Source: a virus
Taxonomy: Duplodnaviria; Heunggongvirae; Uroviricota; Caudoviricetes
Length of the DNA stretch: 58,458 nucleotides
Virus record (IMG/VR): IMGVR_UViG_2724679172_000006
Strand: one strand, 5' to 3'
Shown here: piece by piece, positions 2,748 through 54,604 of the stretch
Layout of the letters: each line of letters begins with the position of its first letter
Position numbering within the stretch: the stretch's first letter is position 1
Position numbers and translations under genes: made by a program
Notes under the pieces: generated by a model
What the model was told of the DNA's origin: nothing
What the model saw: the letters and a program-made list of their open reading frames with translations, nothing else
Database searches by the model: none

Positions 2748-3103
2748 TTCTTTTCACATTCCTTAGTCCATTTTTCAATGTTCATTTTGGCAATATCAGT
2801 CATTCCATCACCTAAGAAATACTTTCTCCGGTACGTCTTGCACTTAAACCACACTACAACAGCCACCAGCCAGAAAATAAAAGGCCATACAGCAATACCA
2901 ACTCCAGCCGCGATAAAGCCCAATAGCCATAAATGAAGCTCTCCAACTTCTGTTTGCGGCAATATTCTTAAAGAATTAAGCAGCAGACTGAAGGAATAGT
3001 CGTATGCATTGGCGGTATAAGACATGCAATCCATATAATTAAAGTCATAGCCTGCGGCTGCCGCCCATAATGGGCGGTCAAGAAAATGTTTTAGTGTCAT
3101 CAT
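2729..3103 (-). CDS. hypothetical membrane protein
   Basis: Two hydrophobic helices (LHLWLLGFIAAGVGIAVWPFIFWLVAVVVWF) followed by lysine-rich tail. Confidence 0.5.
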   Translation of the reverse strand: MMTLKHFLDRPLWAAAAGYDFNYMDCMSYTANAYDYSFSLLLNSLRILPQTEVGELHLWLLGFIAAGVGIAVWPFIFWLVAVVVWFKCKTYRRKYFLGDGMTDIAKMNIEKWTKECEKKWRKKK

Positions 3104-3109
3104 ATAAAT

Positions 3110-3499
3110 TTAAGGTTCAGACCAGTTATCTTCAATAGCAATGCTTAATCTTTGTAGCCATTCTGCTAATTTCAGCATTGCTTCTCTTTCGCTTAAACCA
3201 CGAGGAAAATCATCAAGCGAAATTGTTGGCTTGAAGCCCCCGTAATTATCTATTTCAACAGTCAGATTTTGCTCCAGCACGGTATTCCTTACGCGGCTAT
3301 TGTGCCGAAGCAAATATACTGAACGTGATTTATTGGTTTTATGGTCAAACTGATATTCGGTAAGTATCATCTGGCTTTTGCCATGACTATTACCTCTCCA
3401 CATACTTACCTCACTTAATAAAACAACTCCATGCGTAGTTGATGATTTTTTCCCACGTAATATAAATCTGCACTCCGGCAGTAAAACCAAAGCCAACAA
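3110..3499 (-). CDS. hypothetical protein
   Basis: ORF track only. Confidence 0.4.
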   Translation of the reverse strand: MLALVLLPECRFILRGKKSSTTHGVVLLSEVSMWRGNSHGKSQMILTEYQFDHKTNKSRSVYLLRHNSRVRNTVLEQNLTVEIDNYGGFKPTISLDDFPRGLSEREAMLKLAEWLQRLSIAIEDNWSEP

Positions 3500-3581
3500 T
3501 TGCTGAAAAAATCAAAACATTTACTTTTGACATTATAAATTTTCTCTCGGTGTCGTAGGTGATAGCACCATAATTGATAAT

Positions 3582-3833
3582 TTAGTGAGTTAGCAGTTCC
3601 ATTTTTTGGATGATTTCCGCATGAGCATCATCGTTATCAACACTTAACTCGTTTAATGCCTCTCGCACTACATCAACTTCTTCTGGTTGGAAGAAGTCAT
3701 CTCGGTAGTCACCAAATAGAACCGAAACAAGCCTGCCACCAGCAACATCAAGATTGGCGCTAACAGGTGGCTCTTTACCATCCTCAAATTCGACTACAAA
3801 AGTTATTTTTCCCATCGTTACCACCAGCGACAA
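3582..3833 (-). CDS. hypothetical protein (83 aa, acidic)
   Basis: ORF track only. Confidence 0.45.
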   Translation of the reverse strand: MSLVVTMGKITFVVEFEDGKEPPVSANLDVAGGRLVSVLFGDYRDDFFQPEEVDVVREALNELSVDNDDAHAEIIQKMELLTH

Positions 3834-33353: not shown

Positions 33354-34355
33354 ATGTCAAAGAAAAACAGACCAACAATTGGGCGAACCCTTAATCCTTC
33401 AATATTAAGCGGATTTGATAGTTCTTCAGCCTCTGGCGATCGAGTCGAGCAGGTATTCAAGTTATCAACTGGTCGCCAGGCCACATTTATTGAAGAGGTA
33501 ATACCTCCGAACCAGGTAGAAAGCGATACCTTTGTTGATCAGCATAACAACGGGCGTGACCAGGCATCTCTTACGCCAAAATCATTAAAAAGTATCCGAA
33601 GCACTATTAAGCATCAGCAATTTTACCCTGCAATAGGTGTTAGACGGGCTACAGGGAAAATTGAAATTTTGGATGGTTCCCGGCGTCGAGCTTCTGCCAT
33701 CTTAGAGAACGTAGGGTTGCGGGTTTTAGTCACGGACCAGGAGATCAGCGTTCAGGAAGCGCAAAATTTAGCGAAAGACGTTCAGACAGCATTGCAGCAC
33801 AGCATTCGAGAAATAGGTCTGCGTTTGATGCGAATGAAAAATGATGGGATGAGTCAGAAGGATATTGCAGCCAAAGAAGGGCTGTCTCAGGCGAAGGTCA
33901 CGCGTGCTCTCCAGGCAGCGAGTGCTCCGGAAGAATTAGTCGCCCTTTTCCCTGTTCAGTCGGAATTAACCTTTTCGGACTACAAAACGCTTTGTGCTGT
34001 TGGCGACGAAATGGGGAACAAGAATTTAGAGTTTGATCAGCTTATTCAAAACATATCCCCGGAAATAAACGACATCTTATCCATTGAAGAAATGGCCGAA
34101 GATGAAGTTAAAAATAAAATCCTGCGCTTGATAACAAAGGAAGCCTCACTACTCACGGATAAAGGTTCTAAAGATAAGTCCGTAGTTACTGAATTATGGA
34201 AATTTGAGGACAAGGATCGCTTTGCAAGGAAGCGCGTGAAAGGCCGTGCATTTTCTTATGAGTTTAATCGACTTTCAAAAGAGCTACAGGAAGAACTCGA
34301 CAGGATGATTGGGCATATCCTTAGAAAGAGCCTCGATAAAAAGCCGAAGCCTTAA
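33354..34355 (+). CDS. parB: partition protein ParB
   Basis: 333 aa; 16 nt after parA; followed by heptamer/hexamer centromere. Confidence 0.9.
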   Translation: MSKKNRPTIGRTLNPSILSGFDSSSASGDRVEQVFKLSTGRQATFIEEVIPPNQVESDTFVDQHNNGRDQASLTPKSLKSIRSTIKHQQFYPAIGVRRATGKIEILDGSRRRASAILENVGLRVLVTDQEISVQEAQNLAKDVQTALQHSIREIGLRLMRMKNDGMSQKDIAAKEGLSQAKVTRALQAASAPEELVALFPVQSELTFSDYKTLCAVGDEMGNKNLEFDQLIQNISPEINDILSIEEMAEDEVKNKILRLITKEASLLTDKGSKDKSVVTELWKFEDKDRFARKRVKGRAFSYEFNRLSKELQEELDRMIGHILRKSLDKKPKP

Positions 34356-34359
34356 ACTT

Positions 34360-34445
34360 TCGCCATTCAAATTTCACTATTAACCAACTGTTTTTAAAGT
34401 AAATCCATCTAAAATTTCAAGGTGAAATCGCCACGATTTCACCTT
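34360..34445. other. parS centromere
   Basis: ATTTCAC heptamers at 34371, 34422 (inverted) and 34436; TCGCCA hexamers at 34360 and 34428; AT-rich IHF-like spacer. Confidence 0.8.
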
Positions 34446-34507
34446 GGATTTTACCTTCCTCCCCTACTCCCGAAAAAAATAAAAAAATTGCTTGTCACGA
34501 GAAAGTC

Positions 34508-34529
34508 AACAAGTGACTTTCAATAAAAT
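34508..34529 (+). promoter_or_regulatory. candidate late promoter element
   Basis: AACAAGTGAC-N6-TAAAAT upstream of head gene. Confidence 0.35.
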
Positions 34530-34559
34530 CTCTTCCGAAAAGGGATTCACACAAGTGCC

Positions 34560-36287
34560 TTGTGTTTAAGGAAGAGTAAATTGAGTAACTTACGCGAATA
34601 CCAGAATCGTATTGCAGATATCGCAAAACGCTCTAAAGCTGTGCTTGGCTGGGCAAGCACTGCGCAGTTCGGTACTGATAACCAATTCATTAAAGATGAT
34701 GCCGCGCGTGCCGCATCTATCCTTGAAGCTGCACGTAAAGACCCGGTTTTTGCGGGTATCTCTGATAATGCCACCGCTCAAATCGCTACAGCGTGGGCAA
34801 GTGCACTGGCTGACTACGCCGCAGCACATAAATCTATGCCGCGTCCGGAAATTCTGGCCTCCTGCCACCAGACGCTGGAAAACTGCCTGATTGAGTCCAC
34901 CCGCAATAGCATGGATGCCACTAATAAAGCGATGCTGGAATCCGTCGCAGCAGAGATGATGAGCGTTTCTGACGGTGTTATGCGTCTGCCTTTATTCCTC
35001 GCGATGATCCTGCCTGTTCAGTTGGGGGCAGCTACCGCTGATGCGTGTACCTTCATTCCGGTTACGCGTGACCAGTCCGACATCTATGAAGTCTTTAACG
35101 TGGCAGGTTCCTCTTTTGGTTCTTATGCTGCTGGTGATGTTCTGGACATGCAATCCGTCGGTGTGTACAGCCAGTTACGTCGCCGCTATGTGCTGGTGGC
35201 AAGCTCCGATGGCACCAGCAAAACCGCAACCTTCAAGATGGAAGACTTCGAAGGCCAGAATGTACCAATCCGAAAAGGTCGCACTAACATCTACGTTAAC
35301 CGTATTAAGTCTGTTGTTGATAACGGTTCCGGCAGCCTACTTCACTCGTTTACTAATGCTGCTGGTGAGCAAATCACTGTTACCTGCTCTCTGAACTACA
35401 ACATTGGTCAGATTGCCCTGTCGTTCTCCAAAGCGCCGGATAAAGGCACTGAGATCGCAATTGAGACGGAAATCAATATTGAAGCCGCTCCTGAGCTGAT
35501 CCCGCTGATCAACCACGAAATGAAGAAATACACCCTGTTCCCAAGTCAGTTCGTTATCGCGGCTGAGCACACGGTACAGGCGGCGTATGAAGCACAGCGT
35601 GAATTTGGTCTGGACCTGGGTTCCCTACAGTTCCGCACCCTGAAGGAATACCTGTCTCATGAACAGGATATGCTGCGTCTTCGCATCATGATCTGGCGTA
35701 CTCTTGCGACCGACACCTTTGACATCGCTCTGCCGGTTAACCAGTCCTTTGATGTATGGGCAACCATCATTCGTGGCAAATTCCAGACTGTATATCGCGA
35801 CATTATTGAGCGCGTTAAATCTTCTGGTGCGATGGGGATGTTTGCTGGTGCTGATGCAGCATCTTTCTTCAAACAGTTGCCGAAGGATTTCTTCCAGCCA
35901 GCCGAAGACTATATCCAGACTCCGTATGTTCACTACATCGGTACCCTGTTCGGTAACGTGAAAGTGTACGAAGTACCTGCTGGTATTTGTAAGAACTTAA
36001 CGACAGAGAACATTCAGTTCAGCTCGATGGATGTGCTGTGCTACGTCCGTGATGAAAATCCGGGTAAAGCAGGCTTCGTGACTGGTGATGCTGTCCCGGC
36101 TATCCCGTTCCAGCATCCGACCACTCCGGCGCTGGTCAACCGTACCACACTGTGGGGTTCGGCTATCAACGATATGCACCCACGCAACGGCGCTGATTAC
36201 TTCACTCGTGTAACGCTGACAATGGCCAAAAAAGGCGGGCTTAACTTCATTAGCGGCGACACGATTGATGCCGGTGACTCTGAGTAA
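34560..36287 (+). CDS. major head (capsid) protein precursor, gp23-like
   Basis: 575 aa; first structural gene beyond parS, as in P1; real start probably the TTG a few codons in, after GGAAGAG. Confidence 0.55.
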   Translation: MCLRKSKLSNLREYQNRIADIAKRSKAVLGWASTAQFGTDNQFIKDDAARAASILEAARKDPVFAGISDNATAQIATAWASALADYAAAHKSMPRPEILASCHQTLENCLIESTRNSMDATNKAMLESVAAEMMSVSDGVMRLPLFLAMILPVQLGAATADACTFIPVTRDQSDIYEVFNVAGSSFGSYAAGDVLDMQSVGVYSQLRRRYVLVASSDGTSKTATFKMEDFEGQNVPIRKGRTNIYVNRIKSVVDNGSGSLLHSFTNAAGEQITVTCSLNYNIGQIALSFSKAPDKGTEIAIETEINIEAAPELIPLINHEMKKYTLFPSQFVIAAEHTVQAAYEAQREFGLDLGSLQFRTLKEYLSHEQDMLRLRIMIWRTLATDTFDIALPVNQSFDVWATIIRGKFQTVYRDIIERVKSSGAMGMFAGADAASFFKQLPKDFFQPAEDYIQTPYVHYIGTLFGNVKVYEVPAGICKNLTTENIQFSSMDVLCYVRDENPGKAGFVTGDAVPAIPFQHPTTPALVNRTTLWGSAINDMHPRNGADYFTRVTLTMAKKGGLNFISGDTIDAGDSE

Positions 36288-40035: not shown

Positions 40036-40668
40036 ATGTTTGTGCCTGTACTGTTAAAGGGGGACTCTAAAATGGCTGTGATTCCAATGTCGTACTCCCC
40101 GGGTACTGTCGCTCGTCGATTTTCGATCCTGGACGGAGTTACCATCCAGGGTGTGCTTTACCAGGTTATATGGGATTCCAAAACCCCATTTGCAGCTGTA
40201 ATAGAGGCTGCGCCTTCTGTTATCGATGGTGATATGCGCCATAAGGTTGTCGCTACTCTTGAACTTCAACGTCGCCCGCAGCTTGAAGGCGTACTGGTAA
40301 GGAAGTTCTGGGAGGATAGCGATGTTGCCCAGATTGAAGGTATTGTGGTTGATGGAACCGTCCGTGATGTCGGTTTAGCTACTTTTGTTTACGAAACCGT
40401 AGCCTCAAAAGCTGGTGTTGTTTTGCTTAGTGATAATGAGCAATACGAAGGTGGAAAAGCTCTTTGGCAACACATCGCCCGTCGCTCTTCCGAGCTAAAA
40501 GTGTTTATCCTCGACACCGATGCCGCTCAGTATTACCCGTTTGACGGCGAACGTGTTTGCTATGACGGGGTAAGTATTCCTGAATCTGAGATATGGAGTG
40601 AACACCCAGATCGAAGTAAGCATGGGGTTGTTCTTGTCGCTGAATCCATAACTGGAAAGGCGGCATAG
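40036..40668 (+). CDS. hypothetical protein (likely start at 40072)
   Basis: ORF track; GGGGGA before ATG at 40072. Confidence 0.5.
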   Translation: MFVPVLLKGDSKMAVIPMSYSPGTVARRFSILDGVTIQGVLYQVIWDSKTPFAAVIEAAPSVIDGDMRHKVVATLELQRRPQLEGVLVRKFWEDSDVAQIEGIVVDGTVRDVGLATFVYETVASKAGVVLLSDNEQYEGGKALWQHIARRSSELKVFILDTDAAQYYPFDGERVCYDGVSIPESEIWSEHPDRSKHGVVLVAESITGKAA

Positions 40669-40962
40669 CAGTAAAATTCCTTGCTCCTTAAAAGGGGAGA
40701 GGGTTAATCTAGATATGCTAAGCATGGATATGGCCTCAGATTAATGTTAAGCGTCTTGCAGGACGCGTAATGTTATCTGGGGCTTTCTTCTGTTATTTGT
40801 TTGAGTGCTAGGTAGCAAAGAGAGCTAGCATTCATCAGGCAAATCTATCAATAAATAGCGTTAGTTTTTGTTGTGTGTATGTTTCTTTATTGTTATTGTT
40901 ATTGTGTTGTTTGTTTTTTGGACAACGCAATTCCTATAATCTATAGAATAAAGGAAGTATAT

Positions 40963-41250
40963 ATGGCTGATGTACGCATTACTTGCATTACCCTCTCCGG
41001 CTCGCAATCAATCCATGAGCATATTACTCATGTGGGAAGTCCTCAATTTAATACTAGCAATGGGAAATGGACTGTTGAGCAGGTAATTAATGCTATTGAT
41101 AATAATCTCCATACATTCTATGTAACAGATAATGCAGGTAATCGTGTAGAAGTTGGGGTTGTTAATCCTGGTAATGGTGGAAGGCAGTTTATTAGAACGT
41201 ATGCAGACAATCGATGGAATAATAATTTACTATCGCTACCAGTCTGTTAA
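40963..41250 (+). CDS. DUF3892-like small protein
   Basis: About 95 aa ending ..RQFIRTYADNRWNNNLLSLPVC, matching the conserved C-terminus of DUF3892 proteins; AAGGAAG before ATG; low-GC gene after an AT-rich leader. Confidence 0.45.
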   Translation: MADVRITCITLSGSQSIHEHITHVGSPQFNTSNGKWTVEQVINAIDNNLHTFYVTDNAGNRVEVGVVNPGNGGRQFIRTYADNRWNNNLLSLPVC

Positions 41251-41261
41251 TGTAATTTTAT

Positions 41262-41297
41262 AAAAAAGGCTGCAACCTCTGTTGCAGCCTTTTTTTA
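41262..41297. terminator. bidirectional intrinsic terminator
   Basis: AAAAAAGGCTGCAACctctGTTGCAGCCTTTTTTT between convergent genes. Confidence 0.7.
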
Positions 41298-41320
41298 GCC
41301 ATTATGACTGAGATAAGCCA

Positions 41321-42376
41321 CTATAAACTCTGAACAAGACGTTCGATTGCTGCACCATATCTTTCTAATGGTTCATTATTGATTTGTGGCTCAGTGTCAT
41401 GGATCTGATATCTGCCTGGTTTTATATCAAATAGAGGTCTTCCTAGATGGGAAGATACTATAGCTACGGAATGGTTATCTGGCACAGTAAACGTTTTTAA
41501 ATTTCCGCCTTGGAACGCTGTTGGTTTATTCGTCCGCAGATTTTCAGCTCTATCCCTGATTTCGTCGAACATTGCCGAAAACGCTTTACTTGCTCGTTTG
41601 TCATACTCTGTCGAACGATTAAAAACTAGAGAATGAATGACAGGAACCGCTAGACCAAACTGTTGACACCGATCGTAAAAGTTAACAGAACGATAATCGT
41701 TTTGTACTCCAACGCCATAAACCAACTGGCTTAGGTTATCCACTGCTCGAGCCGAAGAACCATCACTTGAGCAAGGTATTATAATTGCATTTGCTGCTAT
41801 CAGTGATAGTTCGGTATAGGCAGAGAAACTGGGGTTGCAATCAATAAAGCAAATGGTTTCTTCGATACCTTGTTGTTGTGCACATGCAACAAGCAAATCT
41901 CGTAGCCACAGGTGGATGCTTTTCCATGAGTCAACTGGTAAGTTTACGCTGCTTAACTGATTGATTACTTGCGCCTGAACTTCCAGGCTTGGGTCGCCTG
42001 CAATCAAAAATACATTGTCAGGGACATGCCCGTTAATTTCAGAGACATGAATTAAGAAACTTGTTTCTGAACCGGTAAGCATGTGGGGGCTGCGAGTTCT
42101 TCTGTCAAAGTACCCACCGACAGTTTTTCGTTGTTGAATTAAGTTCGCGAGGTTAGCAGCACCAGTACCGTTACCGCCGAGCAATATTTCAGATAAGTTA
42201 GCCTGCGGGCACATATCTGCAAAAATAATACGCTTTTCTGGATTTTGCCTTGCGTATTCACAGGCCATAGCGAAAGATAAGTATGTCTTTCCTACGCCAC
42301 CTTTATTATTCCAAATAGCATACGATTTCATGGTATCCCCGGCGTTATCTGCTGTTTGTGTGCCAGCATAAGTCAT
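41321..42376 (-). CDS. ParA/MinD-superfamily ATPase with C-terminal extension
   Basis: Walker A IWNNKGGVGKT; 351 aa; downstream of repL-like gene on same strand; likely start at internal MKSYAIW. Confidence 0.6.
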   Translation of the reverse strand: MTYAGTQTADNAGDTMKSYAIWNNKGGVGKTYLSFAMACEYARQNPEKRIIFADMCPQANLSEILLGGNGTGAANLANLIQQRKTVGGYFDRRTRSPHMLTGSETSFLIHVSEINGHVPDNVFLIAGDPSLEVQAQVINQLSSVNLPVDSWKSIHLWLRDLLVACAQQQGIEETICFIDCNPSFSAYTELSLIAANAIIIPCSSDGSSARAVDNLSQLVYGVGVQNDYRSVNFYDRCQQFGLAVPVIHSLVFNRSTEYDKRASKAFSAMFDEIRDRAENLRTNKPTAFQGGNLKTFTVPDNHSVAIVSSHLGRPLFDIKPGRYQIHDTEPQINNEPLERYGAAIERLVQSL

Positions 42377-42640: not shown

Positions 42641-43486
42641 TCACCCCCTGAATCCTGCCGGTATACCCCATTTTTCGTTATCTTTATTTTTGGCTAAAAC
42701 CGCATTAAGAGCTTCGTTTACCGTCATGCAATGCGGTAGATTATCGAAGTTTGATATCCCGCCAATATCAGGCGAACGCTTGTTCTTCAGGTAAGCATAT
42801 TTCCGCCCAGCCGCCTCTACTTTCTGCTTGAACTCATGTTTTTGAGCGCGTTTTTTGGATAACCGCAGATTGTCAGCCTTTGCTTTTGCCTCAGCGATCC
42901 ATGAAGTCAATTTTTTGAGTCTGGTCGTTCCGGCACCGCCGGAAACTGATCTTTTTGTTTTTTTAACTTGTGACTTCTTATTCTTTATTGCCACGTCATC
43001 CTGACAGGGGGAGGGGGTATCATTTTGACATGGGGGTGTGGATAAAAAATCAAATAAAGCCAATGTCTTAGCGAGAACAGCTTTAACCTTGGTTGCCGCT
43101 GAAGAGATCTTTAATTTGCTTTCAATCAGCGCATTTTTGGCTTGTTGTGCGAAGGCGAAAAAGGATGGTGTAAACCGGTACAGGTTAGCGCGACGTTCAT
43201 GGTGATCGCCGATAACAATCTCTACAGACAGAATTCCTTTGTTTACAGCTTCACGGAATGCACGAACGACGGTTGATTGGCTATAACCAGTTTCTGCCGC
43301 GATCAGGCGGTGGGGCTTGTGAATGAAGTATTCACTGGTTGTTGCCGCGAGATTTGCACATTGCGACAGGATATGCCCGGCGCTACGGGATAGACCGGAG
43401 TGTGTTACAAAGAAGGCCAATTCATAGCCAGAAAAAGTAAAATCGCTCATCGTTATACAGCTCAGGAAAGTGACTTTAGCCAGCAT
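42641..43486 (-). CDS. repL: lytic-replicon initiator, RepL-like
   Basis: 281 aa; helix-turn-helix segment GYSQSTVVRAFREAVNKGIL; immediately downstream of kilA. Confidence 0.55.
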   Translation of the reverse strand: MLAKVTFLSCITMSDFTFSGYELAFFVTHSGLSRSAGHILSQCANLAATTSEYFIHKPHRLIAAETGYSQSTVVRAFREAVNKGILSVEIVIGDHHERRANLYRFTPSFFAFAQQAKNALIESKLKISSAATKVKAVLAKTLALFDFLSTPPCQNDTPSPCQDDVAIKNKKSQVKKTKRSVSGGAGTTRLKKLTSWIAEAKAKADNLRLSKKRAQKHEFKQKVEAAGRKYAYLKNKRSPDIGGISNFDNLPHCMTVNEALNAVLAKNKDNEKWGIPAGFRG

Positions 43487-44481: not shown

Positions 44482-45891
44482 TTAACCTATTGCTACTGGT
44501 TTTAACAAACCAGCATCAAGTAGCTTGCGAGTTAACCACTGCTGGCCTTTACCCGTTAATTGGGGCGTCAGCCGTATCTGGTAGCCATTTTCATCATCCA
44601 GCACCACTTCTTTCACCGTGAAATACCCGGCGTTAATGTACTGCTGGCGCGGTACGTTTTTGCGCGCACCAAAAGCCATGAGAATGCCGTTCTGGCGCAA
44701 CCATGAGAAAAGGGCGTTTTGCTTAAGTCCAACGACCTTTGCAAAGTTCCCGATCAGGATTCCATTAGCCGCTGATACCCGGTCGGCAAAATCGACTTTA
44801 GGGGCTGCGGCCACCAGCTGTTGATTTAGCTGGTGGGTTTTCTGTTCCAGTAGCTGCTTTTGTTCAGCCAGCTCGGCAGCCAGGCGCAGAGCTTCGGGAA
44901 GCGTCTGGGGGATTGCGACCGGTTGCTGTTCTTTTTGCCGGAAGTAGCTGTCTTCCAGTTTTTCAAAGAATGCCCACGCTTGCTCTGTGTCTACGATCTT
45001 AGACATGCGTGCCGCTCCGCGTTCGGTCCAGAGTATTAAGGATCTGGTCTTGGGGGAAATTTGCAACTCGCTAAAAGATAGTCGCAAACTTTTTATCTCA
45101 TCTCCTTTGATTTTAAAGAAGTGTTTACCCTCTACAAATCGTTCTTCATTGCGATTGTAGTTCTGCTGAATACGAGTAGGTGTAGTGCCATACCCTCTAG
45201 CAAGAGTCTCGGTTGTCACGACGCGTACTCCCTGCCATTCCAGAACGGGAATTTCATCAGGATGATTTTCAACATTTATAGGTTCCAATGCCTGAATCAT
45301 GGTATGTAGCGAACGGCGGACCGCTTTTGACTCGCGCGCGGCAACTCGCAGGGCTTGTTTGTAGGTCATGGTTATGACAACCATAGGCGTACCGCCACCT
45401 GGCGGCACGGTTGCACTTTTTGTGTAACCGTCCTCACCTTCTAATTCGTCGAGTATTTTTTCGATGAATTTGTTGTTCCGAACCTCTGGTTCCCCACATA
45501 ACTTACGCGCTTCATTGACCATCTTTAACAGTGTCTGGCTGTCGATTGTGTCTCCAGTGTTGGAGATAACATTCACAGCTGGTGATGGCGTAGCTGAAGC
45601 AACAGGTGCTGTTTTTTCAACATTTAAATTATTACCGGTCATTCTATGTGCCTCCTTTCTCATTTCTGCTGCCACTGTTGCGTAACGTAGACGTCCTTGT
45701 TCAATCAAATAATCCCTGATCTCGGCTATCAGTAGCCTGTTGATCACAGCCTTATCTGTTCGGGTATAAAAACGTCTGGTTATCATGAAATAGTTAGCAA
45801 TTGCGCCGGGGATCTCCCGTGTCGGCATACAGGCAGTATGCAAGGCGATCGCTTCGGCTATTTCATTACGGGTGACGAGAGGTGTTTTCAT
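44482..45891 (-). CDS. ant: antirepressor Ant
   Basis: 469 aa; antirepressor-type N-terminal region and KilA-C-like C-terminus; start overlaps stop of icd-like ORF. Confidence 0.7.
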   Translation of the reverse strand: MKTPLVTRNEIAEAIALHTACMPTREIPGAIANYFMITRRFYTRTDKAVINRLLIAEIRDYLIEQGRLRYATVAAEMRKEAHRMTGNNLNVEKTAPVASATPSPAVNVISNTGDTIDSQTLLKMVNEARKLCGEPEVRNNKFIEKILDELEGEDGYTKSATVPPGGGTPMVVITMTYKQALRVAARESKAVRRSLHTMIQALEPINVENHPDEIPVLEWQGVRVVTTETLARGYGTTPTRIQQNYNRNEERFVEGKHFFKIKGDEIKSLRLSFSELQISPKTRSLILWTERGAARMSKIVDTEQAWAFFEKLEDSYFRQKEQQPVAIPQTLPEALRLAAELAEQKQLLEQKTHQLNQQLVAAAPKVDFADRVSAANGILIGNFAKVVGLKQNALFSWLRQNGILMAFGARKNVPRQQYINAGYFTVKEVVLDDENGYQIRLTPQLTGKGQQWLTRKLLDAGLLKPVAIG

Positions 45892-46109
45892 AAACCCCCC
45901 TGAACGTCGGCAGAGAAGGGGAGGCTCCAGTAACTAAGTGAATTGCGCGAGTTAGTTGAAAAACGGGCAGTAAAAATGCAGGGGCCATCAGGCAATTGAG
46001 AGCGTGCTTCGTCTTCTGTTGCTGCGATAACGAAGTGATAGTGGTGTTTTTGGCAGGAGTAAAAGCGCCAGATAAATTCAGGATGAGTAGGGGTAGGGAT
46101 AGTAGCCAC
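45888..46109 (-). CDS. icd: Icd-like small protein, translationally coupled to ant
   Basis: 73 aa; GTG start with AAAGGAGG 8 nt upstream; stop overlaps ant start. Confidence 0.45.
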   Translation of the reverse strand: MATIPTPTHPEFIWRFYSCQKHHYHFVIAATEDEARSQLPDGPCIFTARFSTNSRNSLSYWSLPFSADVQGGL

Positions 46110-46293
46110 AATGGCAGCCTCCTTTTGCTAATTTAAGGAGCTACCGCGTGAGGTTCCAATCTCAATGGCGGTAGCACTGACTGGGTTGGAACTACCGGCG
46201 CAAAAGGGAACCGGCCTGCCTTTCGGCAGCCCAGCCAGCACTACCATTGATCTCGGAGCTATGTGCTACGTATGGTTGTGCGATGGCATGACA

Positions 46294-46400
46294 CAAAAAA
46301 AGACGCTTTTGGCGTCTATGTCGCCTTTTGCATTATCCGGGGTTCCAATCCCGGCATCCGTTTTACTAAGATGCCTGTTTAGGATAAACCGAAAATGCAT
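46294..46400 (-). ncRNA. c4: c4-like antisense regulatory RNA (approximate bounds)
   Basis: Hairpin CCGGGATTGGAACCCCGG (46337-46354) followed by terminator hairpin AGACGCcaaaAGCGTCT plus U-run (46293-46317); loop complementary to GTTCCAA elements at 46133 and 46167 in the icd leader. Confidence 0.35.
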
Positions 46401-46443
46401 TAGCACGCAAGCAAGTTAATGTAGCATATGAAGCTAAAAAAAT

Positions 46444-46460
46444 AAAATAATTAGAGCAAC
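46444..46460 (-). promoter_or_regulatory. C1-repressor-type operator (14 of 17) upstream of c4/icd/ant
   Basis: AAAATAATTAGAGCAAC. Confidence 0.45.
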
Positions 46461-46517
46461 TTGCAACCATGTAAATTATTTCTCTGGTAACTAAAATGTA
46501 TGAGTTTAATTGATATG

Positions 46518-46534
46518 GGTCAAAGATTTTGACC
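46518..46534. promoter_or_regulatory. palindromic operator-like site overlapping a sigma70-like promoter
   Basis: GGTCAAAgatTTTGACC; TTGACC-N17-TATGCT. Confidence 0.3.
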
Positions 46535-46606
46535 ATTGCATGGTGAAACTTTATGCTACAAAATGTTATTTTAAGGCGTTTTATCTGTGGCAGGAGATAG
46601 TTAATC

Positions 46607-46957
46607 ATGTCATCTGAACATGTTCGTAAAGGTGTAACAAATGCGAAATTCAATGAAGAGCAATCTAATATTCTCTTTATTGAAATAGGAATTCTGTCAA
46701 TACTGATAGGTTTAATGTCTAAATCATGGTGGGCCTTTGGCGGTTCTTTTCTTGGACTGATTTTTAGTTTAAGAATAAAATTTCTAGCAATACCATTGAT
46801 GATTGTATTTAGCTTAGTATGGGGAGCTATTGGCTATAGTATTGGTACTTTGTTTGAATCAACAGCAGCAAGTATTGTTTTGGGGGTAATTGCTTTCCTG
46901 AGTGGTTTGGGTACTCATTTTGCTGCCGTGCAATGGGCAAATGATATTGCAGAATAA
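46607..46957 (+). CDS. small polytopic inner-membrane protein
   Basis: 116 aa, about four hydrophobic helices; AT-rich codon usage. Confidence 0.5.
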   Translation: MSSEHVRKGVTNAKFNEEQSNILFIEIGILSILIGLMSKSWWAFGGSFLGLIFSLRIKFLAIPLMIVFSLVWGAIGYSIGTLFESTAASIVLGVIAFLSGLGTHFAAVQWANDIAE

Positions 46958-46979
46958 TTACAGATAAGAAGCGAAAAGA

Positions 46980-47456
46980 ATGAATATGAGATGGTTTTTA
47001 TTATTTGTATCGTTAGTTTCAGCAGGAACATTTGCAAAAATTGATCCTCTACAATGGAATGTAATTGAAGAGAGAGGGGGGAGAGAATATACAATCCATA
47101 ATCATAATGGTGATAAGATAAGTTTTTTATGTGATATGGGATTCATGTATGGTTCACCAGATAGTGCAGGTAGTTTAGGCTTGTTGCTAAGTTCGTCGAA
47201 TAATAAAAAAGAGTATAATGCTGACAAGAATAAAATAGTATTAACTATAGATGGTGATCAATATCCTTTTAGAAATCTTGGATCAATGGTTGGAGATTCT
47301 TGGTGGTATGCCTTTTGGCAAGATGCAGCAGATTCAAATGCTAATATGATTGATGCTTATGTTGATAATGAAAAAATTGCTACATTCCCTCTTTCTGGGC
47401 TAAGTAAGTTGTATCAACAAGCCAAAATGGATGGATGTATTAAACGAGGCAAATGA
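46980..47456 (+). CDS. secreted/periplasmic protein with cleavable signal peptide
   Basis: MNMRWFLLFVSLVSAGTFA then hydrophilic domain; 158 aa. Confidence 0.55.
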   Translation: MNMRWFLLFVSLVSAGTFAKIDPLQWNVIEERGGREYTIHNHNGDKISFLCDMGFMYGSPDSAGSLGLLLSSSNNKKEYNADKNKIVLTIDGDQYPFRNLGSMVGDSWWYAFWQDAADSNANMIDAYVDNEKIATFPLSGLSKLYQQAKMDGCIKRGK

Positions 47457-47530
47457 TCTTTCTGTGTTAAAGATTAACGCAATCAATAAAACATTGGTTG
47501 CGTAATATTCTATTATAGAAATGGAATAAT

Positions 47531-48565
47531 ATGACAAAAATTACTAATTCTAATGAGTTGAAGTTGCTGTATAAACAGTCAGTGCTCATTCCATCATACA
47601 AAGATCACGTAGCGATCTTGCAAAAACAATTAGGAATAGAAAAACATTCTTTTCAAAATATGCCAAGATTGAATAGACAAGCTGTAATTAGTAACTCTCT
47701 TCGAAAACAATTGGCTAGTATACCGAACTTGGCTGGAATAGGCAGCAAGTATCGTGAACATATCGCGATTTTACAGAAACAGACTCAGGCTCTTTTCCCT
47801 CATGATGCAAATAGATATATTCAAATGCTAAGGAAACAGGCCGAAATAGCTATGCCATTACGAAAACAGCTTGAGGTGCTTAATAAGCAAGCTGGTTTAA
47901 ATAACATGCAAGCGATACTTAAAGAATTACAACAAAGTGCAAGTTATAAAATAGATGTAAGCCAAGACATAAAGAAAGTACTAGATCACTATGCTAGAAC
48001 AAGAAATGCTTCATTACATCAAATAATAGAGCAGGGGATTTCATCTATTGCGCAGGCTTATGCTGAAGGTGCTACTGAAACATCACACACCAAAAGTAAT
48101 GTTCAAAATAAAGGATTAAATAAACCTAGCTCAAAGTTTGTTGATTCATTTAAAGAGCTTCCTTATCCACTGCAATGGTTACTAATGGTTATATTTTCTC
48201 AAGTTGTGTTTGGTGCTTTTATTGATTACGGAAAAGAGAAAACCTTGCTGGGAATACACAAGGCAGAATCATATTTTATATCTCTGTTTGAGGATAAACC
48301 AATATCAAAACAACAATTAATTAAAGAAAACAAAGAAATTAGTTGGGAAGATCTCAATGGTTTTCGTTTTATAACTGGTGAGAACGTAAGATTACACGTC
48401 AGTCCTTCTATAAATAGTGAGGTGATTGAATGCATTGGCAAAAATACTATAGTGGCTGTTTTAGATAAAAAAGATCGCCAATGGCTTTTCGTGCAGGTTA
48501 AATCAGGGGACGAGTTTATTACTGGATGGATTACACGAACATACACAAAGCCTCTTAAGGCTTGA
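47531..48565 (+). CDS. membrane-anchored protein with internal repeats and C-terminal SH3b-like domain
   Basis: Repeats H(V/I)AILQKQ and LRKQ(L/A); transmembrane segment LPYPLQWLLMVIFSQVVFGAFIDYG; C-terminal ..VAVLDKKDRQWLFVQVKSGDEFITGWI resembles bacterial SH3 domains. Confidence 0.5.
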   Translation: MTKITNSNELKLLYKQSVLIPSYKDHVAILQKQLGIEKHSFQNMPRLNRQAVISNSLRKQLASIPNLAGIGSKYREHIAILQKQTQALFPHDANRYIQMLRKQAEIAMPLRKQLEVLNKQAGLNNMQAILKELQQSASYKIDVSQDIKKVLDHYARTRNASLHQIIEQGISSIAQAYAEGATETSHTKSNVQNKGLNKPSSKFVDSFKELPYPLQWLLMVIFSQVVFGAFIDYGKEKTLLGIHKAESYFISLFEDKPISKQQLIKENKEISWEDLNGFRFITGENVRLHVSPSINSEVIECIGKNTIVAVLDKKDRQWLFVQVKSGDEFITGWITRTYTKPLKA

Positions 48566-48665
48566 ATTTTATCACCGTATCTTGGGGCTGGGTGTTGATG
48601 ACGATGTGCTACTTGAAGTACTTGGGTTTTTTAACGCAGCATCTGAAATGTGTAGACTGACCGGT

Positions 48666-48687
48666 AACAAATGACAACTCGTAGAAT
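48666..48687 (+). promoter_or_regulatory. candidate late promoter element
   Basis: AACAAATGAC-N6-TAGAAT, about 30 nt upstream of the 48719 gene; overlaps inverted repeat CGTAGAATC..GATTCTACG. Confidence 0.35.
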
Positions 48688-50884: not shown

Positions 50885-53800
50885 ATGGAAAGAAAAAACG
50901 CCAATATTGACGATGTTATAAGGACAGTTGAAACCGCCAGCGCGAAAGAGCTGGAAGAGCTTGCAGGTATTCGGGAAGCTGTTGAAGATTTGAAAGGGGA
51001 ACGAGTTGCAACTGTTGATCCTGTCTCTCGCAGTGTGTCGGCATTAAATCGCACAATCGAAAATTCACGTCCTGACTTTGTGACCAATGTGCCATCAGTG
51101 GACTCTATTGTTGACGCAATGAAACGGCTTAATTTAGGGGACGTTTCTCGTATACGGGAGGACAAAGTCACTAACCGTGAACAGCAGGCTGCACCAACAG
51201 CGCACAATCCCCCAAATAGACGAAGAGAGGCAATAACAGAGGATGTTAAAGCACAGCGGTTAGAAACGGTCAAACTCGCTCGTGATTTGAAAGGGGAACG
51301 CGTTGCAACGGTTGACCCAGTATCTCGCAGTGTGTCGGCATTAAATCGAACAATCGAAAATTCCCGGCCAGACTTTGTGGCCAATGCGCCATCAGTAGAC
51401 CCTATTGTTGACGCAATGAAACGGCTTAATTTAGGGGACGTTTCTCGTGTAGTTCAGGAGGGCATTGCTCAAGAGGAACAGCAGGCCAAATCAACTACAC
51501 CAAAGGGTAAAAAAAGACGCAGGAAGGCTATATCAGAGGATATAAAGGCACAACGGACCGAAGCAGCCGAACACGCTCGCGAAATGTTCGATCAAAAAGG
51601 CGGTGCGCAAAAAAGCCAAAACCAACGCGATGCGCGTGGTCGTTTTATTGGAAAGTCAGGGAGTAAGGCCGCAGCGGAAGATGCCCGTGCTGAACGTGCT
51701 GAAAAGGCCAGGCGCAAAGAGGATGATGAGCGTCTAAATGCTGAATCAGGTTTATTAAAAAAACTGTCAAAAGTAGCTGAAGGCATAGGTAACCCTTCAG
51801 AGACTCGTGCCGTCGATGCGTTAGGTTATGCCGTTGCTGGTCCATTGTGGGCAGCAGGGAAGGAGCTTGGCGGGATATCAAAAGAAGTTGGTGGATCGCT
51901 TAATGGTGCCAGAAAGTCTATTGCCGATGTGATTCGTGGCAATGACGATAACAGCCGTAGAAAAGGTTTTTTTAGGCGTAAATCGCAAAATAGTGCCGAT
52001 GTCGTTCAGGTTAACACCCAAAAACGGACGGTTCAGGAACTTCAGGAGCAGACCAGCGAAATTAAAGAGGGCAATGACAAGATTCTCAGCGCCCTTGATC
52101 AGATAGCCAAAAACACCGGGAAAAAGAAGGGCGGCTTGCTGTCCAAACTATTTAGCCTGTTAGGGAAGGGGGCCGGTGGCGTCGCGTCGTTGTTAATGGG
52201 GCGTGGCATGCTGAAAAAAGCTGGAGCACTCGCTTTTGGCGCTCTGGGGGCAAAGAGACTCGTAGGAATGCTACGCGGTGGGGGCAAGAAGACTCTCGCC
52301 CATGAAGGCGGAGATTTGGCTGCCCGGGCAGCAGGTAAACTTGGATTAAAGGCAGTTGGTAAAGGGGCGTTACGCGCAATTCCCCTAGTCGGCACAGTGG
52401 CTGGAGGTATTTATGATGCGGTAACCGGTTGGAATGATACAGAAGCGCAACGTCGAGCGTTTGGGCTTAAATCAGGACAAGATCCATCATTCCAGCAAAA
52501 AGCCGCTTATACGTTAGCCAATGTTCTTGATTTGGGGGGACTGGTATCTGGTATTAGCAGTGCTATTGGTGATGTTCTCAAATCACTTGGATTTGAGGAT
52601 ATCGGCAATATGTTGCAATCATTTTCGACGGAAAGTATTGCCCAGGCCATTGATAGCGGGGTTACCAACTTAGAAACATATATTTCTAACCTTGGCGACA
52701 CCATTTCTACCAAGTTCGATGATTACACAGCAAAGATTGGTGATGCTGTTTCAGCATGGTTTAGCGATACATCTAATAAGTTGCTTGAAAAGCTGGATGC
52801 CATCAAAGACTTCTTTACTGTCGATAACCTGAAACAGGTTTTCAGTGATGCAATTGATAGTGCAATTGACTTCATTAAGAACCCAGGGAAACACATTAAA
52901 GAGGCGGCTGGTAATATTTGGGATGGGGTTAAAAATTTACCCGGTAAAGCATTAGATGCAGCGGTTGATGCCGTTAAAAATACCCCTGCGGCAATGATTG
53001 TATCAAAAATACCCAATCCGATCGGCGAGGCTAATGCAAAAGAAATCACTCCAGAGTTAAAAGCTCCGGTTAATAGCCACCAGGAGACATCTGATTCTAA
53101 AACTGAATCCGATGCTAAACAGACTAATATTGCTACCCGCGTGATAAATGCGGCACTGGACACGGCGAAAGATAGCAATAAAACAGTTAAAGAAACTGCC
53201 AATCAGATTATCAATGCAAATGCCGTAGAAATGGGCAATAGCGCGGTGCGGAAAATTGATTCAGCTATTGGACAAAATAGCTCGTCATCATCGTCGCGTA
53301 ATACCACCGGCACTGGGAATGACATTCAGAAAGCTGCTGATACCTACAATAATGGCAACTTAGATGTAAAAGTCGGAAGCCTTGGCGCTGAAGGTAAGGC
53401 AAATCTCGATAAGTTAGCTCCGTATTTTGCTGAACTAGAGAATAAATATGGTCTTCCTGAAGGCACTCTTTACGCGATTGCTGCAACTGAATCAGGAGGG
53501 GATCCTAACGCAAAGTCTCCGCTTACAAGATCACCAGATGGAAAGTTAAGTGGTGGCGCACTCGGGATGTTCCAGTTCACGAGTATTGCTCGTAAAGAGA
53601 CAGGGATATCGGAACCGGATGCATTTGATCCTGTGAAATCGGCAGAAGCTGCGGCTCTTCTCATGAGCAAGTATCTGAAGCAAGCCAATGGAGACTTAAA
53701 CGAGGCCATCACTGCATATAACGCTGGGTTTGGCACTATTAATAGGTGGAAAAAAGGCACAGGTGACTTATCGAAAGAAAACCGTGAGTACGCGATCAAG

Positions 53801-54604
53801 GTCAATACTCATCGTGCTCGCTATTTAGGTGGTGAAATCTATACACCAGGGGCAGGAGCACAGGGGGGGGCGCAATATGGAGTGAGGGGACCACTGCCTG
53901 ATAACGCCGTTATCGATCAGTCTACTGGCCTGGCGTTTACCCCTGGTGATAGCCCGTTTGAGAAGGGCGGTCTGGTAGACAAAATCGGTAATGCTGTTGG
54001 CGTTAACGATCTGGTCAACAAATTCATGAATGGTCGGGGGATGCGTCGAGAAGTCGTCCAGGGAACCCTCGAAGAACGTGCACGAGGAAATGGGACCGCA
54101 ACAGCAGCTGGCAATGTGTATGTTGATACTCCGACGCCAGTTGAAGAGGCGCGTCCAGTGGCCAGCAACTCAAGTTACTTTGACCAGCTCGGCGCACAAA
54201 TGGGGATTGATGGACTGTATGACAAACTCATTAATGCCCGGGGAATGCGCTCAAATAATTCTCCTCAACCAGCATCCACGTTCCAGGTGACGACTGCCGC
54301 CAACGATTTGCAGCAACCAACCGGTCGTATGCAGATAGACGGACAGGTTATTAGTGACCTTGGCGGCTCCGGTGCCAAGCCGACAATGCAGTTGGCTGAT
54401 AATACCGTTTCACTTGATGGTGAAACGAAGCGGCTGTTTGCGCAGATGACCTCATTGCTTGCCAGGATTGAAGAGCACACCAAAGACTCGGCGAAAGGCC
54501 AGGGAACTGTCGTAAAGGTCAGCACGCCTCAGCCGGGCGTTATGCGCACGGTACCACTGTCAATTGATGATCCGTTGATGAATGACTACGCGAGAGTTGA
54601 TTGA
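50885..54604 (+). CDS. sit: tape-measure-like tail protein with lytic transglycosylase (SLT) domain
   Basis: 1239 aa; SLT motifs ATESGG, GMFQF, AYNAG around aa 860-950; glycine/alanine-rich central region; N-terminal 99-aa tandem repeat. Confidence 0.75.
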   Translation: MERKNANIDDVIRTVETASAKELEELAGIREAVEDLKGERVATVDPVSRSVSALNRTIENSRPDFVTNVPSVDSIVDAMKRLNLGDVSRIREDKVTNREQQAAPTAHNPPNRRREAITEDVKAQRLETVKLARDLKGERVATVDPVSRSVSALNRTIENSRPDFVANAPSVDPIVDAMKRLNLGDVSRVVQEGIAQEEQQAKSTTPKGKKRRRKAISEDIKAQRTEAAEHAREMFDQKGGAQKSQNQRDARGRFIGKSGSKAAAEDARAERAEKARRKEDDERLNAESGLLKKLSKVAEGIGNPSETRAVDALGYAVAGPLWAAGKELGGISKEVGGSLNGARKSIADVIRGNDDNSRRKGFFRRKSQNSADVVQVNTQKRTVQELQEQTSEIKEGNDKILSALDQIAKNTGKKKGGLLSKLFSLLGKGAGGVASLLMGRGMLKKAGALAFGALGAKRLVGMLRGGGKKTLAHEGGDLAARAAGKLGLKAVGKGALRAIPLVGTVAGGIYDAVTGWNDTEAQRRAFGLKSGQDPSFQQKAAYTLANVLDLGGLVSGISSAIGDVLKSLGFEDIGNMLQSFSTESIAQAIDSGVTNLETYISNLGDTISTKFDDYTAKIGDAVSAWFSDTSNKLLEKLDAIKDFFTVDNLKQVFSDAIDSAIDFIKNPGKHIKEAAGNIWDGVKNLPGKALDAAVDAVKNTPAAMIVSKIPNPIGEANAKEITPELKAPVNSHQETSDSKTESDAKQTNIATRVINAALDTAKDSNKTVKETANQIINANAVEMGNSAVRKIDSAIGQNSSSSSSRNTTGTGNDIQKAADTYNNGNLDVKVGSLGAEGKANLDKLAPYFAELENKYGLPEGTLYAIAATESGGDPNAKSPLTRSPDGKLSGGALGMFQFTSIARKETGISEPDAFDPVKSAEAAALLMSKYLKQANGDLNEAITAYNAGFGTINRWKKGTGDLSKENREYAIKVNTHRARYLGGEIYTPGAGAQGGAQYGVRGPLPDNAVIDQSTGLAFTPGDSPFEKGGLVDKIGNAVGVNDLVNKFMNGRGMRREVVQGTLEERARGNGTATAAGNVYVDTPTPVEEARPVASNSSYFDQLGAQMGIDGLYDKLINARGMRSNNSPQPASTFQVTTAANDLQQPTGRMQIDGQVISDLGGSGAKPTMQLADNTVSLDGETKRLFAQMTSLLARIEEHTKDSAKGQGTVVKVSTPQPGVMRTVPLSIDDPLMNDYARVD
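50990..51586 (+). repeat. tandem direct duplication (two units of about 297 bp) inside the tape-measure-like gene
   Basis: Units beginning LKGERVATVDPVSRSVSALNRTIENSRPDF are about 85-90 percent identical at protein and DNA level. Confidence 0.7.

Follow-up and report, generated by a model that had tools for sequence, protein, structure and literature searches.

An AT-rich accessory slot of a P1-like phage-plasmid carries three genes for predicted envelope proteins, with a possible role against superinfecting phages

The window studied here, meaning the whole 58,458-nt stretch of the IMG/VR virus record IMGVR_UViG_2724679172_000006 (Caudoviricetes), is a P1-like phage-plasmid, and we present an analysis of the AT-rich locus that lies in it between repL, kilA, ant and icd on one side and pmgC, tub, pmgB and sit on the other. 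Both flanks share 95-99% identity with P1 and P7, in which the same interval carries simA-simB-simC and upf50.5-upf50.0, respectively. The locus had been picked out from the letters alone, in what we call below the original prediction, as a cassette of three co-directional genes at 46380-48600 in the sim position of P1; alignment to P1 and P7 indeed places it there, and all three open reading frames (ORFs), of 116, 158 and 344 amino acids (aa), are found on the plus strand. On the whole, the segment at ~46461-48663 is very probably this element's own version of the accessory slot of P1-like elements, holding three separately acquired moron genes for envelope proteins, here named g1, g2 and g3, and these proteins may tentatively be read as hindering the entry of superinfecting phages. 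The features of the locus are as follows.

46444-46460, minus strand: C1-repressor operator-like site, equivalent of P1 Op51/Oc4, matching ATTGCTCTAATAAATTT at 14/17 positions; left edge of the accessory slot
46518-46534, no strand: palindrome GGTCAAAGATTTTGACC, with two back-to-back TTGACC -35-like hexamers; only perfect copy in the window
46529-46557, plus strand: sigma-70-like promoter candidate for g1-g2(-g3), TTGACC-17-TATGCT, 9/12 against the consensus
46607-46957, plus strand: g1, ORF for a predicted 116-aa inner-membrane protein with a hydrophilic N-terminus and 3-4 transmembrane (TM) helices by hydropathy; phrog_15014
46980-47456, plus strand: g2, predicted 158-aa secreted periplasmic YfjT-family protein (~139 aa mature); PF27224, phrog_3429
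47457-47530, plus strand: structured g2-g3 spacer with three hairpins, one having an 11-bp stem at 47477-47503 (terminator-like match)
47531-48565, plus strand: g3, predicted 344-aa bitopic membrane protein; phrog_7086
48548-48563, no strand: short hairpin AAGCCTCTTAAGGCTT at the end of g3, a possible bidirectional terminator
48658-48666, no strand: right recombination junction, at which P1, P7 and type-E elements become homologous again, just upstream of LPsit and pmgC

The G+C content of 46380-48600 is 34.0% (0.340), compared with 46.9% (0.469) for the whole window and with 0.485 and 0.475 for the left and right 2-kb flanks. When G+C is computed in a 2221-nt frame sliding across the window (mean 0.469, standard deviation 0.031), this is the most AT-rich stretch of its length, about 4.2 standard deviations below the mean, with the minimum of 0.338 at start 46361. 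The G+C content at third codon positions is 0.23, 0.21 and 0.27 in g1, g2 and g3, against 0.47, 0.53 and 0.42 in pmgC, tub and sit. Thus the strong AT-richness claimed for the stretch is real, in codon usage as well, and a foreign composition of the DNA is supported. Its left edge had, however, been placed too far left, since 46380 to ~46460 is the c4 promoter/C1-operator region, and the slot extends from there to the late promoter (LPsit) of pmgC-tub-pmgB-sit. Divergence from P1 and P7 begins at 46083, taking in a different c4 allele. Breakpoints relative to other elements lie at 46080-82, ~47450-47586 and 48658-48666, and those of the slot coincide exactly with the sites where P1 and P7 diverge from each other; the segment has clearly been exchanged by recombination. 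In fact, the simABC slot has already been published as one of eight highly variable regions of P1-like phage-plasmids, linked to low G+C content (PMC9603915).

On the left side of the slot, C1 operator matches number 9 in the window against 0.33 expected, and the site at 46444-46460 corresponds in position to Oc4 in P1 and P7. The palindrome that had been described as overlapping a sigma-70-like promoter is present together with that promoter (46518-46534 and 46529-46557), and promoter-like sites lead off it in both directions. As a conserved operator the palindrome was rejected, being single-copy in the window and imperfect in the nearest variant, the type-B relative (slot types are listed below), where it reads GATCAAAGACTTTGACC and its symmetry is not conserved; for these reasons it is treated here as overlapping divergent -35 boxes. 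In type B the -10 hexamer of the promoter candidate is TGTGCT. The candidate lies 68 nt beyond the C1 operator, and therefore it is probably not repressed by C1.

The first gene, g1, matches phrog_15014 with E=1e-75, and no other family is found for it, with no match in Pfam, NCBIfam or PADLOC. It had been described as a four-helix membrane protein of 116 aa, of which the length and the membrane character hold, while hydropathy leaves the number of helices at 3-4. Its ratio of nonsynonymous to synonymous substitution rates (dN/dS), taken against type B, is 0.07. Homologs with 58-72% identity stand solitary elsewhere, among chromosomal metabolic genes, by an integrase and by an AAA ATPase.

The second gene, g2, begins with the signal-like segment MNMRWFLLFVSLVSAGTFA followed by K, read by hand, and hydrophobic N-termini occur in all family members aligned, in keeping with the earlier description of a signal-peptide protein. 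PF27224 (= YfjT) is carried as a precomputed match by the cluster representative P0001, which is 97% identical to g2, and a profile of g2 and 13 relatives aligns end to end with E. coli K-12 YfjT (hhalign 99.7%, E=4.6e-26, 148 columns). Across the family alignment Cys51 and Trp109 never vary, and Trp26 and Cys153 reach at least 90% conservation. The AlphaFold2 model of g2 has a pLDDT of 85.7 and a pTM of 0.78, with low confidence at residues 1-20, as for a signal peptide. It has no fold match in PDB, and neither sequence nor fold resembles lysozyme or lytic-transglycosylase inhibitors (Ivy, MliC/PliC and similar, with T4 Spackle as a functional analogue); a weak match is seen to the fold of IalB (invasion-associated locus B). 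The dN/dS of g2 is 0.24.

Between g2 and g3 lies a structured spacer, with a predicted folding energy of -23 kcal/mol for the RNA of 47450-47535 (z=-5.3). Homology to type B stops at 47450 and homology to types C/D begins at 47586, so that the spacer is a module junction; it may serve in attenuation or processing, or be a scar of recombination. The third gene, g3, encodes a variable N-terminal domain of helical repeats (1 to ~205), a TM segment at ~213-233, and a conserved linker with a predicted SH3b domain (285-338). This agrees with the protein with internal repeats, a TM segment and an SH3b-like C-terminus that had been foreseen: the L-x-K-Q motif has five copies in residues 1-200, a number reached by 0/5000 shuffles, and residues 285-338 match SH3_3 (PF08239) with E=1.1e-5 and 26.0 bits, against a gathering cut-off of 27. 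Among the family members tested, 18/18 match SH3_3 (best E=2.3e-9), and most homologs carry a precomputed PF08239 match. Within the family, whose proteins have 235-481 aa, the TM-linker-SH3b C-terminus is nearly invariant while the N-terminal repeats vary in sequence and copy number; dN/dS is 0.38-0.43 for g3, with 0.60 in its N-terminal and 0.20 in its C-terminal portion. The AlphaFold2 model of g3 is unreliable (pLDDT 39, too poor for the SH3b fold), and a PDB profile search returns coiled-coil noise only. By general membrane-insertion rules, a 212-residue N-domain without signal peptide is most likely cytoplasmic, with the SH3b domain in the periplasm, where it probably binds peptidoglycan. 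Overall, the predicted compartments support the envelope location that had been proposed for all three products.

The foreign composition and the missing functional annotation of the three genes would also fit non-functional AT-rich filler with chance ORFs. This explanation is effectively refuted, as all three genes are under purifying selection with dN/dS well below 1, the fold of g2 is confident, the homologs are conserved across genera, and all three proteins match PHROG families.

To view the locus among its relatives, we list the contents of the slot by type.

Type A (this window; ~27 plasmids): g1, g2, g3
Type A' (NZ_LR890336.1): SimA-family gene, g1, g2, g3
Type B: g1, g2, then a reverse-strand DUF4760 gene
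Types C/D: full-length SimA-family gene, YfjT allele 27-29% identical to g2, g3 allele of 62-68%
Type E (p1303_95, phage Ro157c2YLVW; also the distant Cronobacter phage JK004): full-length SimA-family gene, YfjT allele of 37%
Type P1: simA, simB, simC
Type P7: upf50.5, upf50.0

In every variant, the proteins carry a signal peptide, a lipobox or TM helices. The list shows that the cassette is a stack of three independently assorting modules. An obligate three-gene operon or system was rejected, since g1-g2 occur without g3 (B), g2 alleles occur without g1 (C-E), and g1 and g3 each occur alone. Of the swapped-in cassette of the original prediction, therefore, the exchange by recombination stands, as the breakpoints show; the single three-gene unit does not, and neither is g2 a newcomer, as described below. 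In PLSDB, 163 plasmid records match part of the cassette, of which 27 cover at least 80% of it and 21 are at least 99% identical; the carriers are nearly all E. coli P1-type plasmids of ~95 kb, largely from clinical and animal E. coli. For reference, ~505 PLSDB plasmids have a pmgC at least 95% identical to that of the window. No INPHARED phage record matches the cassette DNA at megablast level. A g3-family protein is encoded in 64 PLSDB plasmid records, and in other plasmid-prophages, from Citrobacter, Salmonella and Yersinia, distant homologs of g3 stand by themselves in the opposite orientation. In the type-B relatives (~30 plasmids), the DUF4760 gene that replaces g3 encodes a 297-aa membrane protein (L003 5209-6102, minus strand) with no PADLOC or NCBIfam match. 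In addition, a TnpB (IS200/IS605-type) gene is inserted upstream of simB-simC in the E. albertii plasmid NZ_CP034163.1 (L035 1433-2641).

The YfjT family of g2 recurs in the slot, and 185 PLSDB plasmid records encode a member, 56 of them of the window's allele type. Members also occupy the same slot in phage Ro157c2YLVW and in the distant JK004, and g2 is a divergent allele of a recurrent resident. The family is small, with 21 clusters (50% identity) at E<=0.001 among 1.84 billion representatives, and 3/21 of these (P0059, P0065, P0070) resemble unrelated repeat proteins. Its alleles in the slot are 27-37% identical to one another on backbones of ~97% identity, and between the E. coli type E and JK004 the g2 counterpart has a dN of 0.40, compared with 0.12 and 0.20 for its neighbours, so that it diverges faster. 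Outside the slot, members are found in virulent jumbo phages of Serratia and Pectobacterium and in the cryptic prophage CP4-57 of K-12, where the uncharacterised YfjT is encoded after ypjK, for a small membrane protein, and yfjS, for a lipoprotein. YfjT-family genes repeatedly adjoin a gene for a small, very hydrophobic membrane protein, namely ypjK in K-12 (NC_000913.3, L022 12446-13616), one of 84 aa (L020 904-1689), one of 120 aa (L021 110-977), and g1; these partners have no detectable homology to one another. On the E. coli plasmid CP057476.1 (~40283-42253), two different YfjT-family genes apparently flank a g3 gene.

Such neighbourhoods bear on the possibility that g1, g2 and g3 form one coordinated defence system, in which a periplasmic or peptidoglycan sensor and a membrane effector would abort infection. 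The genes are co-directional with gaps of 22 nt and 74 nt and have one promoter candidate, a small membrane protein adjoins the YfjT gene in several unrelated contexts (K-12 YpjK, L020, L021, g1), and g3 is found together with YfjT alleles at 27-29% and at 100% identity. However, g1, g2 and g3 assort independently, the small membrane partners are not homologous, and a module junction with a structured spacer separates g2 from g3. PADLOC-DB v2 gives no match at E up to 1 for any of the three or for the DUF4760 protein, and a known defence system was rejected on the lack of PADLOC and NCBIfam matches. We consider a coordinated system of this kind distinctly improbable.

The first gene of the other slot types provides a link to the tail. 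Over 41 residues, P1 SimA (52 aa) shares 93% identity with the N-terminus of the secreted proteins of 163-215 aa that open types C, D and E, and it is 62% identical to its JK004 counterpart (loci compared: P1 simA, L001 3643-3801; L005 2302-2949; L011 1309-1827; L013 1880-2527; L006 2901-3470). Judged by this identity, P1 simA is a truncated remnant of a larger, predicted periplasmic slot protein, and the full-length SimA family and the YfjT family together look like the older occupant of the slot, because the pair is common to the distant JK004. The C-terminal half of the full-length SimA family is homologous to residues ~984-1088 of Sit (57 residues at 44% identity, E=9e-9), and both contain the core motif GMRxxxVQGTLEERARGxGT, which is kept in a 65%-identical SimA-family variant. 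In the window, this Sit segment is encoded at 53834-54148, just after the SLT domain, and its counterpart is residues 121-175 of the L005 2302-2949 protein; it is among the least variable parts of Sit. The copy suggests molecular mimicry of the injection protein, and through the sibling variants it links the slot to the injection machinery. As the window has no SimA-family gene, the Sit-like segment bears on the slot as a whole and not directly on this cassette, whose proteins have no similarity to Sit or to any other protein of the window at E<=0.1.

This link raises the question of whether the slot genes serve the phage's own lytic cycle, as accessory or immunity proteins for the Sit transglycosylase/tape-measure protein or as envelope factors of lysis or injection. 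In all P1-like elements examined, JK004 among them, pmgC-tub-pmgB-sit directly follows the slot, and the SimA-family partners have the conserved segment in common with Sit. Sit itself is mosaic among P1-like plasmids, and its SLT domain (Pfam 847-966) has two alleles with a dN of ~0.64: allele 2 is present in 63 PLSDB plasmids, and in allele 1 a loop of 10 residues next to the catalytic ES motif is either present or absent. YfjT allele C goes with SLT allele 2 in at least 33 of 35 carriers, against a base rate of ~10%, an association which could come from physical linkage (the loci are ~6 kb apart) or from clonality; 8 of the carriers are near-identical E. fergusonii plasmids. Against a lytic role, the contents of the slot swap freely without matching change in Sit: in a cross-tabulation of 18 elements, the window's YfjT allele A combines with either SLT-1 loop variant (three elements each), and slots of the sim and P7 types combine with SLT-1 as well as with SLT-2. 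Moreover, identity over the whole of Sit does not follow the YfjT allele. P1 and P7 are fully functional without any YfjT gene, the slot lies upstream of LPsit and outside the late operon, and simA, simB and simC have been mapped as non-essential for P1 by CRISPR interference (PMC10695390). With simABC dispensable for lytic growth and the slot upstream of the late promoter, the slot genes are accessory and not morphogenetic, and we regard a function in the lytic cycle as improbable.

The reading that we favour, tentatively and on sequence grounds, is that the cassette genes encode envelope proteins which are expressed by the prophage and may hinder the entry of superinfecting phages. A modest promoter, placed past the C1 operator and ahead of the late promoter, suggests by its position that g1-g2(-g3) would have sigma-70 transcription of their own in the lysogen, separate from that of the late operon. 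DNA entry would then be stopped at the envelope, by g2 on the periplasmic side and by g1 in the inner membrane, while g3 would be an independent add-on anchored to the cell wall. Exclusion is best supported here because of the Sim precedent in the slot, the envelope compartment, the distribution of YfjT in phages and the fast divergence of its alleles. SimC is processed, resides in the periplasm and blocks P1 at a step after adsorption. T4 Imm and Spackle, P22 SieA and HK97 gp15 are small inner-membrane and/or periplasmic proteins of the resident phage that block DNA entry via the injection proteins of the incoming phage. The presence of YfjT genes in virulent phages likewise favours a function of benefit to the phage. 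An allele pattern like that of YfjT is known for P22 SieA, which has three types less than 30% identical and acts on ejection proteins (PMC10883804).

Several observations weigh against exclusion. The Sim phenotype of P1 appears only at raised gene dosage, which makes it a weak precedent. The promoter candidate is itself weak (9/12), and sigma-70-like sites are not enriched in the region (8 against 10.4 expected). The searchable literature on yfjT, ypjK and DUF4760 offers nothing functional, which for YfjT counts here, and homologs of g1 stand among ordinary chromosomal genes. Finally, if YfjT proteins inhibited the Sit transglycosylase of incoming relatives, their alleles might follow those of Sit; with allele A and the sim- and P7-type slots found with mixed SLT variants, the matching that an SLT-specific inhibitor might leave is not seen, and YfjT-Sit allele matching was rejected as support for the cassette.

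The main rival holds that the genes are lysogenic-conversion morons for the benefit of the host (envelope robustness, serum or stress resistance, adhesion, colonisation) and are not aimed at phages. The occupants of the slot in P7 resemble host envelope proteins, Upf50.5 having weak TraT and glycine-zipper lipoprotein matches and Upf50.0 matching DUF5384. YfjT is kept in the decayed prophage CP4-57 beside lipoprotein and small membrane-protein genes, g1 has its solitary homologs among metabolic genes, and the carrier plasmids are mostly from clinical or animal E. coli. However, virulent jumbo phages carry YfjT genes yet gain nothing from long-term host fitness, the sole characterised occupant of the slot acts in phage exclusion, and the extreme divergence of the YfjT alleles fits conflict better than housekeeping; the match of g2 to IalB is weak. 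A host-benefit role is therefore somewhat doubtful in our view. More speculatively, the YfjT and full-length SimA families would be a widespread, hitherto unrecognised class of periplasmic exclusion factors encoded by phages, interfering with the passage of the tail transglycosylase/tape-measure protein through the periplasm, and the slot would be an arms-race locus with SimA-full-length and YfjT as its older content; we think this rather unlikely.

Like the cassette, P1 simABC lies in the slot between Op51/c4 and LPsit/pmgC, divergent from c4-icd-ant, with low G+C content, exported or membrane products and non-essential accessory content. It differs in the number and type of proteins, SimA being a 52-aa remnant, and has a known exclusion phenotype, whereas that of the cassette is proposed here. 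As the original prediction had suspected, the proteins are unlike Sim: g2 and g3 reach a best BLASTP E of 2.2-6.7 against SimC, an all-against-all comparison of slot proteins links none of g1, g2 and g3 to SimA, SimB, SimC or the P7 proteins, and orthology to SimABC was rejected. The P7 pair upf50.5/upf50.0 and other variants of 'variable region 4' (PMC9603915) are likewise low-GC sets for envelope proteins in the identical position with function unassigned, and the P7 proteins, a glycine-zipper/TraT-like lipoprotein and a DUF5384 protein, are unrelated to the polytopic membrane, YfjT-family and SH3b proteins of the cassette. In the ypjK-yfjS-yfjT cluster of CP4-57, a YfjT gene also follows a gene for a small hydrophobic membrane protein, co-directionally and on a mobile element; unlike the cassette, that cluster has the lipoprotein YfjS, no SH3b protein and a G+C content that is not AT-rich (0.51), and g1 has no detectable homology to YpjK. 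The parallel with P1 SimC, the T4 Spackle/Imm pair and P22 SieA would be one of logic and not of ancestry; with T4 Imm and Spackle, SieA and HK97 gp15 the cassette has no sequence or fold similarity, and a Pfam search of its proteins gives no superinfection-immunity family. Searches of defence systems, solved structures and the literature assign the cassette no function.

The hotspot and its low G+C content have been described before, and existing annotation calls the genes hypothetical or 'SH3 domain-containing'. To our knowledge, and within the searchable literature, new here are this slot variant and its division into three independent modules, the YfjT family as a recurrent resident of the slot, the origin of simA as a remnant, and the segment by which the SimA family mimics Sit. 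P1-like phage-plasmids are frequent in E. coli of clinical and animal origin and carry resistance genes from cell to cell by infection; the functions encoded in their variable slots decide which cells are open to them and to their competitors. The classical sim locus is a single allele of a hotspot at which genes for envelope proteins are exchanged by recombination, with a YfjT-family periplasmic protein as the recurrent core. If exclusion is true, an uncharacterised K-12 gene family gains a role and a new protein class joins the few envelope-level exclusion mechanisms, and if the wider YfjT/SimA class exists, it would give K-12 yfjT a function and explain the hypervariability of the slot; if exclusion is not confirmed, the locus is an ordinary moron stack.

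Besides the slot, the neighbouring regions show further differences from P1. The features concerned are as follows.

44482-45891, minus strand: ant1, encoding Ant1 of 469 aa (347 aa in P1)
46164-46251, minus strand: c4 RNA (Rfam C4, 76.7 bits)
46296-46374, minus strand: isrK-like Hfq-binding small RNA (58.3 bits), just upstream of c4, where relatives annotate a 39-aa 'ash family protein'
50885-54604: sit, encoding Sit of 1239 aa (1140 aa in P1), longer because of a ~100-residue tandem duplication near the N-terminus

The immunity-I region at 46083-46400 is an allele other than that of P1 or P7, and the DNA around its c4 RNA matches neither of these phages and is ~88% identical to phage D6. The c4 block of the window is co-inherited with g1-g2 in types A and B, apparently not in NZ_LR890336.1. 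Other AT-rich patches of the window lie at 40651-41551, 3101-3651 and 34101-34601, with G+C contents of 0.354, 0.370 and 0.378 in 500-nt frames; the first of them is beside repL (42641-43486, minus strand) and is probably the rlf variable region of P1-like elements.

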